In this document: positions 27,457-30,400 of the stretch, one piece after another
How the letters are laid out: every line of letters begins with the position of its first letter
Numbering within the stretch: the stretch's first letter is position 1
NCBI RefSeq assembly: GCF_013167455.1
Contig: NZ_CP038328.1
Origin: Escherichia coli O157:H7
Lineage (GTDB): Bacteria > Pseudomonadota > Gammaproteobacteria > Enterobacterales > Enterobacteriaceae
DNA: 64,000 bases
Reading direction: 5' to 3' (one strand)
Made by a program: the position numbers

Positions 27457-30400
27457 TTAAGGGCGTTAACACGCAAAGTAACGGCATTTTTGTGGGCGGT
27501 CAGGCGCTCGGCGGCGGCCAGTGTTTCAATGGTCGAAGCCAGCGCGGAGAAACCTACTTTCGACAGTTCCTGCACGGTCATCCGCTTCTGGAAATCCGCC
27601 AGTCCGAGGCTGGAACAGGTGGCGGTGTAGCCGTAAGTCGGTAGAACATGGTTGGTTCCGGAGGCGTAATCACCTGCCGATTCCGGTGACCAGTCACCAA
27701 GAAATACCGAACCGGCGCTGGTGATGCCATCGACCAGTTCGCGGGCGTTGCGGGTCTGAATGATCAGGTGCTCCGGGCCGTACTGGTTGGAGATCTCCAC
27801 GCACTGCGCTAAATCTTTAGTCACGATCAGGCGGCTGGCGTTCAGTGCCTGGCGGGCGGTTTCGGCACGCGGCAGTTCTGCTAACTGGCGTTCGACGGCT
27901 TCGGCAACTTGATGCGCCATATCAGCGTCAGGCGTCAGTAAAATCACCTGTGAGTCCGGGCCGTGTTCAGCCTGAGAAAGCAAATCAGAAGCCACGAAAT
28001 CCGGCGTTGCGCCGCTGTCGGCAATGACCAACACTTCCGACGGGCCTGCGGGCATATCGATCGCCGCACCGTCCAGACGCTGGCTCACCTGACGTTTTGC
28101 CTCGGTGACAAAGGCGTTACCCGGCCCGAAGATTTTGTCCACTTTCGGCACAGATTCCGTACCAAACGCCAGCGCGGCAATGGCCTGTGCGCCGCCGACG
28201 TTAAACACGTCCTGCACACCGCACAGCTGCGCCGCATAAAGGATCTCATCGGCAATCGGCGGCGGTGAGCACAACACCACTTTTTTACAGCCCGCAATAC
28301 GCGCCGGAGTTGCCAGCATTAATACCGTTGAGAAGAGCGGGGCGGAGCCGCCAGGAATATACAACCCAACTGAAGCTACCGGGCGCGTGACTTGCTGGCA
28401 ACGCACGCCTGGCTGCGTTTCTACATCTACCGGCGGCAGTTTTTGCGCAGTGTGGAAGGTTTCAATATTCTTTACTGCCACCGCCATCGCCTGTTTTAGC
28501 TCGTCGCTCAGGCGTTCGCTGGCGGCGGCAATTTCCTCAGCAGACACCTTCAGTGCGGTAACCGTGGTTTTATCAAACTTCGCGCTATATTCCCGCAGGG
28601 CGTCATCACCGCGTGCTTTCACGCTATCGAGAATATCGTTAACAGTGCGGGTAATGCTTTCAGAAGCGGAGATCGCCGGGCGCATTAACAGCTGGCGTTG
28701 TTGCTTTGCAGTACAGCTATTCCAGTCAATGATTGTGTTAAAGCTCATGGCGATCACTCCATCATCTTCTCAATCGGCAGGACCAGGATTGAACTGGCAC
28801 CCAGCGCTTTCAGTTTTTCCATCGTTTCCCAGAACAGGGTTTCGCTACTGACCATGTGCATCGCTACGCGCTGTTGATCACCCGCCAGCGGCAGAATGGT
28901 TGGGCGTTCGGCACCTGGCAGCAGGGCGATGACTTCATCCAGACGTTGGGTCGGTGCGTGCATCATGATGTATTTTGATTCGCGCGCCTGGATCACACCC
29001 TGAATACGGGTCAGCAGCTTGTCGATCAGTTGCTGTTTGGATTCTTCCATTTCGCCATCGCGTTGTATCAGGCAGGCTTTCGAGCGATAGATAACTTCGA
29101 CTTCGCGCAGGCCGTTTGCTTCCAGCGTGGCACCGGTGGAAACCAGATCGCAAATCGCATCCGCCAGTCCGGCACGCGGGGCGACTTCAACAGAACCGTT
29201 CAGTAAGCAGGATTTAAAAGAGATGCCTTTCTGGTCGAGATAACGCTTGAGCAGGTGAGGATAAGAGGTGGCGATACGTTTACCGTTTAAGGAGAGCGGG
29301 CCGTCCCAGGCATCATCAACCGGCGTTGCCAGCGAAAGACGGCAGCCGCCGAAATCCAGACGACGCAGGGTAAAGTAGCGTGGATCTTCACCCTGGGCGC
29401 GGCGGTTAAGCAGCTCTTCTTCCAGCACGTTTTCGCCGATAATCCCAAGATCTACCACGCCGTCCATTACCAGACCGGGAATGTCGTCGTCACGCACGCG
29501 CAGAATATCAATCGGCATGTTTTCTGCCATCGCGATCAGGCGCTGGGTGTGAAGATTGATTTTAATGCCACAGCGCGCCAGCAATTCGCGAGAGTCATCA
29601 CTTAAACGGCCGGATTTCTGCATAGCTATGCGTAAACGAGTGTTGTCTGTCATTTTCTTATTCCTCTTTAAACCTGTCTGAACCGTTATCAACCGCGCAA
29701 TAAAAAAGCCCCCGGAAGGTGATCTTCCGGGGGCTTTCTCATGCGTTCATGCACCACTGGAAGATCTGAATGTCTTCCAGCACACATCGCCTGAAAGACT
29801 AGTCAGGATGATGGTGATGATGGTGCTGTTTAAATTGAACGCGTGTCATAAAAGTCTCTGTGAATGTTTATTCAACTGATGTCTTTTAACCTAAACCACT
29901 TTCACGTTAGAAAGCAAGGGCTTTTTTATATATTTTATGGCGATGGATTTGTTTAATGAATGAGCGGGGAAAGGAGGGGGCTAAGAGTGACTAGGTTAAA
30001 AAAGTAATCGTGAAAATATGTCATTAAAACCCTCAAGAACATTGTGTTCTGTAACTAAAGTGGGCTTTGTTCCTGCCGGATGCGGCGTGAATGCCTTATC
30101 TGGTCTACAAATGTTGCCTAAATTCAATATATTGATGTTTTGTAGGACTAATAAGCGGAGCGCATCAGGCAATGGTATATTTGCTAACAGTTTCGATTTC
30201 ATTCATAGAATGAATTGTCAGTTTTGATACGCTAGCGTAGCCTTATAGATCTAAGGTGTATCAGGAGATAACGGATGAAAAAGGTCGCAATTGTCGGGTT
30301 AGGGTGGTTAGGCATGCCGCTGGCGATGTCACTTTCAGCGCGAGGCTGGCAAGTCACCGGGAGTAAAACCACACAAGATGGTGTCGAAGCGGCCCGAATG

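Follow-up and report, generated by a model that had tools for sequence, protein, structure and literature searches.

The window analysed here is a stretch of 64,000 nucleotides (nt) from Escherichia coli O157:H7 (NCBI RefSeq assembly GCF_013167455.1, contig NZ_CP038328.1), and the element in question is hisL, the leader peptide gene of the histidine (his) operon. The locus is very probably the classical ribosome-mediated attenuator of the his operon, carried in an allele that is fixed in the O157:H7 clone and whose effect on regulation we infer to be small and nearly neutral. The leader peptide open reading frame (ORF) is located at 29799..29849 on the minus strand, consists of 16 codons plus TAG and translates as MTRVQFKQHHHHHHPD, identical to the annotated protein WP_010904803.1 of O157:H7 PV15-279. 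Its start codon ATG is at 29849-29847, and its stop codon TAG, preceded by the Pro and Asp codons, is at 29801-29799. Codon 8 (29826..29828, minus strand) is CAG (Gln), while the aligned codon of K-12 is CAC (His). The base that differs, a C->G change relative to K-12, is the G at 29826; it corresponds to nt +55 of the leader RNA. Codon 8 is followed by six consecutive His codons, the regulatory codons 9-14 (CAC CAT CAT CAC CAT CAT), at 29808..29825 on the minus strand.

A preliminary description of this DNA had placed a his leader peptide at 29799-29849 and had counted six rather than seven consecutive His codons, with Gln at codon 8. Both statements are borne out by the minus-strand translation, in which the stop codon falls within that interval. 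The strand, which is minus, was missing from the description; the plus strand of 29799-29849 translates as LVRMMVMMVLFKLNACH, and no leader peptide is encoded there.

The leader peptide and its attenuator

The preliminary description was also right about His at position 8 of the K-12 leader, since K-12 (NZ_CP064682.1) encodes MTRVQFKHHHHHHHPD, and the alignment gives CAC, not a Gln codon, at this position. K-12 and the window are identical at 299 of 301 nt. The two differences are the C->G change in codon 8 and a C/T difference 93 nt 5' of the ATG, upstream of the promoter. Thus, K-12 hisL (WP_001364200.1, RF00514) shares with the window the locus, the 16-codon ORF, the promoter region, the A:B, C:D and E:F hairpins and the downstream operon, but it has seven consecutive His codons where the window has six. 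The window and O157:H7 PV15-279, on the other hand, are identical over all 301 nt, and the hisL of O157:H7 strains (WP_010904803.1; PV15-279, EDL933, EC4115 and Xuzhou21) shows no difference from that of the window. The Gln8 allele of O157:H7 is already known, being annotated in RefSeq. A full-text literature search, in which the papers listed were judged by title and abstract, found no published discussion of this polymorphism, which does not prove that there is none. In PMC3158064, hisL is mentioned only as a landmark, and PMC5331693 left His_leader out of its analysis.

The leader RNA has the features expected of the His_leader family. The Rfam model RF00514 matches at 29700..29823 on the minus strand over its full length (model positions 1-126 of 126), with a score of 131.6 bits (E = 6.4e-23), compared with a gathering score of 49 bits. 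The variant base sits 3 nt upstream of the first model position and is consequently outside the conserved model. The minimum free energy (MFE) fold of the 184-nt leader contains the A:B, C:D and E:F hairpins, with z = -8.4 versus dinucleotide shuffles. All three are on the minus strand. The A:B hairpin, that is, the RNA polymerase pause hairpin, occupies 29781..29816 according to the Rfam consensus structure, and its MFE pairs run from 29816-29781 to 29803-29794. Both the Rfam structure and the MFE fold show arm A beginning at His codon 12 and overlapping His codons 12-14 as well as the Pro and Asp codons. The C:D hairpin at 29757..29780 has 8 bp (Rfam structure; MFE pairs from 29780-29757 to 29773-29764), and its formation would leave E free for the terminator. 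The E:F hairpin at 29697..29742 is the intrinsic terminator, or attenuator. It has 19 predicted pairs (29742-29700), belongs to the 3' part of the Rfam model, and its 3' arm reaches into the U tract. A simple terminator scan did not flag the E:F attenuator, probably because its stem runs into the T run.

The controlled genes follow directly. The first gene, hisG (29653-28754, minus strand, from the ORF list), has its ATG at 29653, on the same strand as hisL and 146 nt past the hisL stop codon, and the attenuator-controlled structural genes hisGDCBHAFI extend over 22620..29653 on the minus strand, according to the ORF list and to the way in which O157:H7 PV15-279 is annotated over its identical region. 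The full-length Rfam match, the fold z-score and the location of hisG downstream on the same strand show that the leader ORF is genuine and not a chance ORF. The sequence features of the family, namely a covariance match, an ORF with a His run overlapping arm A, mutually exclusive hairpins with a U tract, and an adjoining hisG, are all present. The seven consecutive His codons of the canonical K-12 and Salmonella hisL were not found, the run being six codons long.

For the promoter, a -35 element TTGCTT (29917-29912) and a -10 element TAGGTT (29893-29888) can be read off the sequence, and we take them to be the hisL promoter hexamers. The putative promoter and transcription start site thus span 29880..29917 on the minus strand, with +1 at 29880, whereas a consensus promoter scan detected no promoter at hisL. 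By leader numbering, what we take to be the his pause site, U102, is position 29779, and the base there is U. The choice of +1 at 29880 recovers all numbered features of PMC10989985, namely U49, G127/U128/G129 and the four DnaA boxes with two mismatches each.

Distribution of the Gln8 allele and of other hisL variants

The alleles were counted in 5,426 complete E. coli genomes by megablast with 33-nt queries centred on the variant base, so that any 28-nt seed spans that base. The K-12-type core with seven His codons was found in 4,892 genomes and the CAG (Gln8) core in 299, while a one-codon deletion and a His-to-Arg change at codon 9 (H9R) were found in 108 and 13 genomes, respectively. The hisL core has some other change in 111 genomes. 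Among 60 sampled CAG carriers, all the serotyped ones are O157:H7 or O157, and the unlabelled ones, which include the O157:H7 strains 86-24 and Xuzhou21, have genomes of 5.3-5.65 Mb. The O157 rfbE gene was found in 305 of the 5,426 genomes. It should be noted that one of the 299 Gln8 matches and one of the 305 rfbE matches are on a plasmid-labelled record, which probably reflects a wrongly labelled replicon or some oddity of the assembly.

A link between the Gln8 allele and the O157 antigen cluster was considered and rejected, for O157:H16 98-3133 has an identical rfbE together with a seven-His hisL, and it has also kept yefM-yoeB. Because this rfbE carrier keeps the seven-His hisL, the Gln8 allele marks the O157:H7 clone and not the O157 antigen cluster.

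The census also bears on whether Gln8 could be a sequencing or assembly error in the repetitive His-codon run. Repeats are error-prone in general, and nothing further speaks for an artefact. The change is a substitution, not a change of length, and an error is ruled out by the presence of the same base in 299 independent complete assemblies and by the RefSeq annotation; its probability is practically nil.

Other natural variants of hisL occur in E. coli. The deletion allele, MTRVQFKHHHHHHPD (WP_001375657.1), has lost one codon by an in-frame 3-nt deletion and has six His codons. Compared with the window, its peptide is cut to 15 residues and its start codon is 3 nt nearer to arm A, while the hairpins are intact. 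Its 108 carriers include E. coli 08_3323 and NIID080884. Most of the carriers, O26:H11 FWSEC0001 among them, have genomes of 5.4-5.8 Mb; two have small genomes, which suggests separate origins or transfer. The H9R allele is exemplified by O55:H7 CB9615, whose hisL encodes MTRVQFKHRHHHHHPD (WP_013009236.1) and has CGC in place of CAC at codon 9; 8 of the allele's 13 carriers are labelled O55:H7. Here the His run is interrupted (1 + 5 His), and the hairpins are again intact. In both alleles, as in O157:H7, the missing His is one of the first two in the run. The deletion, H9R and Gln8 alleles are nevertheless different mutations with independent origins. The further variants seen, T2S, T2I and a synonymous ACT, all keep seven His codons.

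O55:H7 CB9615 represents the lineage from which O157:H7 emerged. Each of the two has six intact His codons in its leader, by different mutations on different haplotypes. They show four differences in 301 nt, and O55:H7 retains yefM-yoeB, the toxin-antitoxin pair that is located between yeeZ and hisL in K-12, O55:H7 CB9615 and O157:H16 98-3133. According to Leopold et al., as cited in PMC3158064, the switch from O55 to O157 replaced up to ~130 kb of DNA, with the his operon in it. The four differences and the retention of yefM-yoeB in O55:H7 fit this published replacement.

Beyond E. coli, species-representative genomes were scanned with a pattern that joins the last His codons to the pause hairpin (CAYCAYCCNGNNTAGTCTTNCNGG) and needs only two His codons. 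At least 120 loci were obtained, of which 118 were usable, and the run lengths describe a sample of gammaproteobacterial his leaders sharing this pause hairpin. Six is the most frequent length, with 63 of the 118 species genomes, followed by five (27), seven (15) and four (11), and runs of three and of two His codons occur in one genome each. Six-His leaders are found in Serratia, Pantoea, Erwinia, Yersinia, Citrobacter (MTRAQFKHHHHHHPD) and Enterobacter cloacae (MTRVPFKNHHHHHHPD), and seven-His leaders in E. albertii, Kluyvera, Pseudescherichia, some Enterobacter and a few others. Since six codons were found in 63 genomes versus seven in 15, the seven-His run is not a defining feature of the His_leader family. 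Interrupted runs occur as well, for example HYHHHH in Photorhabdus, HQHHHH in Rosenbergiella and HRHHHH in a Pantoea.

The closest parallel to the window is the hisL of Pluralibacter gergoviae (MISVQFKQHHHHHHPD; ...FKQHHHHHHPD), which has 16 residues, with Gln ahead of six His (codons AAA CAG CAC), and shares the pause hairpin. Its N-terminal residues differ from those of the window, and in this species the Gln layout is the reference state, not a within-species variant. Other Enterobacterales have N, L or S at the position of the Gln before six His. Because six is the commonest run and P. gergoviae has the same layout, Gln plus six His is, judging from these sequences, a layout with which attenuators of this family normally work.

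Predicted effect of Gln8 on attenuation

The expected effect can be derived from the established behaviour of the family. According to PMC4046918, which summarises the model of Johnston et al., a ribosome stalled in the His run covers arm A, so that B:C and D:E pair and E:F is blocked. In the window, RNA polymerase would likewise pause after the A:B hairpin until the ribosome translating hisL frees it. With scarce His-tRNA, the ribosome would linger on the His codons and cover A, B:C and D:E would pair, E:F would not form, and transcription would enter hisG. With plentiful His-tRNA, the ribosome would clear the His run, A:B, C:D and E:F would form, and transcription would stop. Through the C->G change at nt +55, the first codon in the regulatory set of seven has become CAG, which would be read independently of histidine, so that six sensing codons would remain. 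The response threshold would then shift modestly, in that the His-codon rate would have to drop ~5-16% further for equal read-through, while the basal and fully derepressed his levels would be unchanged.

In theory, as Elf and Ehrenberg (PMC1183508) show, attenuation becomes more sensitive the more regulatory codons there are. Experimentally, the leu leader is a precedent for attenuator sensitivity being set by how many control codons there are (Bartkus, Tyler and Calvo, 1991, as cited in PMC1183508), although it concerns another operon and another amino acid than hisL. In a race model with the parameters of PMC1183508 (50 nt/s, 15 codons/s and 60-100 nt to the terminator), the Q6/Q7 read-through ratio was 0.61-0.95 at intermediate His-codon rates, with no difference at saturation or at full starvation.

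The lost codon would also be the position at which the smallest part of arm A is hidden by a stalled ribosome. In Salmonella, UAG stalls at His4-His6 de-attenuate most (Chevance et al., PMC4046918), while His1::UAG and His7::UAG did not differ significantly from the wild type in quantitative reverse-transcription PCR, and the forced His1 stall was among the least effective. We also folded the leader with a ribosome mask. For the complete leader, equilibrium folding gave the 19-bp terminator a probability P > 0.95 at every stall position, and it is uninformative because attenuation is kinetic; a transcript ending before arm F was therefore used in its place, as a crude equilibrium proxy. In this proxy, part of C:D survives when the ribosome stalls at codon 8 (P 0.17-0.45), whereas a ribosome that masks arm A at codons 10-11 abolishes C:D (P 0.00-0.24) and lets another fold, of the B:C / D:E type, emerge. 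Since the His1 stall de-attenuates least and the mask folding agrees qualitatively, the codon lost in O157:H7 would be the least useful one. Taken together, Gln8 probably alters his regulation slightly, as far as the models go, and it is most likely a nearly neutral substitution that clonal expansion has turned into a lineage marker. The cautious suggestion of the preliminary description, that one His codon fewer might slightly alter how sensitive attenuation is to charged tRNA-His, agrees with these predictions.

Several points weigh against this reading. The first comes from the race model itself. In a variant in which stalls at His1 are unproductive, the Gln allele shows higher read-through under severe starvation. 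How large the modelled Gln8 effect is, and even which direction it takes, thus depends on the assumptions of the model. In addition, there may be effects beyond codon counting, through the stability of the ribosome-free leader or through a proposed DnaA box.

The single-nucleotide change might act through RNA structure, by adding a G-C pair that stabilises the terminating conformation of the untranslated leader. The extra pair lies in a long-range helix between GCACCA (nt 55-60) and UGGUGC (nt 125-130). The full-leader MFE is -72.7 kcal/mol for the window versus -69.8 for K-12, a gain of 2.9 kcal/mol in stability for the ribosome-free leader, and the ribosome-free transcript ending before F gives -41.1 versus -38.2 kcal/mol, with P(C:D) of 0.98 versus 0.92. 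However, the variant base is within the footprint of a ribosome at codons 7-15, and the alleles are identical in energies and pair probabilities when the mask is placed at any A-site codon from 7 to 15. Moreover, A:B, C:D and E:F are unchanged by the substitution, the base is not part of the conserved Rfam model, and untranslated leaders terminate already (PMC4046918). We consider a structural effect of this kind very unlikely.

Slightly less credible still is that C55G weakens the proposed rDnaA box 2, makes DnaA bind the leader RNA less and relaxes attenuation via a DnaA-dependent riboswitch, as proposed in PMC10989985 (2023). The numbering of that report is fully reproduced with +1 at 29880, and C55G falls inside box 2 (leader nt 48-56; 29825..29833, minus strand), which reads TTAAACAGC in the window and TTAAACACC in K-12. 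Box 2 has three mismatches to TTWTNCACA in the window versus two in K-12, the change falling at a consensus C, and in that report deletion of nt 48-54 raised his transcription ~5-fold. It should be noted that such mismatch counts carry no defined threshold for function and that the riboswitch model is tentative. The overlapping box 1 (nt 46-54, ATTTAAACA), with two mismatches, is intact in the window. The model comes from a single report, which detected no DnaA-RNA binding in vitro and in which a point mutation within these boxes, U49G, did not significantly alter binding or transcription. The deletion of nt 48-54 also shifts the hisL frame, which in our opinion confounds its interpretation.

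Finally, the loss of one of the first two His codons could have been selected in attaching-and-effacing or Shiga-toxigenic lineages, giving either less his expression under mild limitation or fewer unproductive His1 stalls under severe starvation. Three different mutations do hit codons 8-9 in three pathogenic lineages, namely H8Q in O157:H7 (299 genomes), H9R in O55:H7 (13) and the deletion in the O26:H11 type (108), and the race model predicts a measurable shift of the threshold. However, the clones are heavily over-sampled, so that the genome counts mirror clonal expansion and only ~3-6 events are implied. Furthermore, mutation by slippage comes easily in a CAC/CAT repeat, the deletion and H9R also occur in some small genomes of 4.6-5.0 Mb that are probably non-pathogenic, six His is the commonest number in related species, which places the Gln8 change within the normal range, and a further 111 genomes have other changes in the core. 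Because the independent events are few and the sampling bias is heavy, the three-lineage pattern is weak evidence for selection. Adaptive retuning is improbable in our view, though less so than the two preceding alternatives. The same low probability applies to the broader proposal that the erosion of His1/His2 in O157:H7, O55:H7 and the O26:H11 type reflects convergent selection, resetting the histidine-limitation threshold in gut pathogens or weakening the proposed DnaA box, rather than neutral drift.

Genomic neighbourhood and implications

Upstream of hisL, the gap to yeeZ (29850-30275) lacks the yefM-yoeB pair that K-12 has at this place, and contains a REP-like sequence at ~30066-30100. 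The absence of yefM-yoeB has already been described for O157:H7 Sakai in PMC3158064. A match to the small RNA STnc240 is located at 32120-32194 between yeeY and plaP, and is ordinary here. The O157 rfb cluster is also in the window, with a JUMPstart element at 4540-4577 just upstream of the O-antigen genes, which is likewise ordinary.

A lambdoid prophage (36826-64000) adjoins sbcB (35220-36644, minus strand), with its integrase at 36826-38004. It carries tRNA-Met/Arg/Arg genes at 57647-57890, followed by Shiga toxin genes at 57983-59223, which are 100% identical to O157:H7 loci annotated "Stx2 subunit A / Stx2c subunit B". The Rfam matches within the prophage are the lambda cIII thermoregulator, isrK, C4 and STnc100. 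The presence of the O157 rfb cluster and of the Stx2c prophage in the window is consistent with an O157:H7 origin.

As a discovery the element matters little, for it is a textbook his attenuator, and hundreds of O157:H7 genomes already have this allele in their annotation. Its use lies elsewhere. A single base, the C->G change at leader nt +55, serves as a clean marker by which the O157:H7 clone can be told from O55:H7, O157:H16 and other E. coli. The three natural six-His alleles are variants that could be used for testing attenuation models on the number and position of control codons. Together with the spread of run lengths among species, they indicate that "seven His codons" is a trait of the Escherichia/Salmonella neighbourhood and not a requirement of the mechanism.

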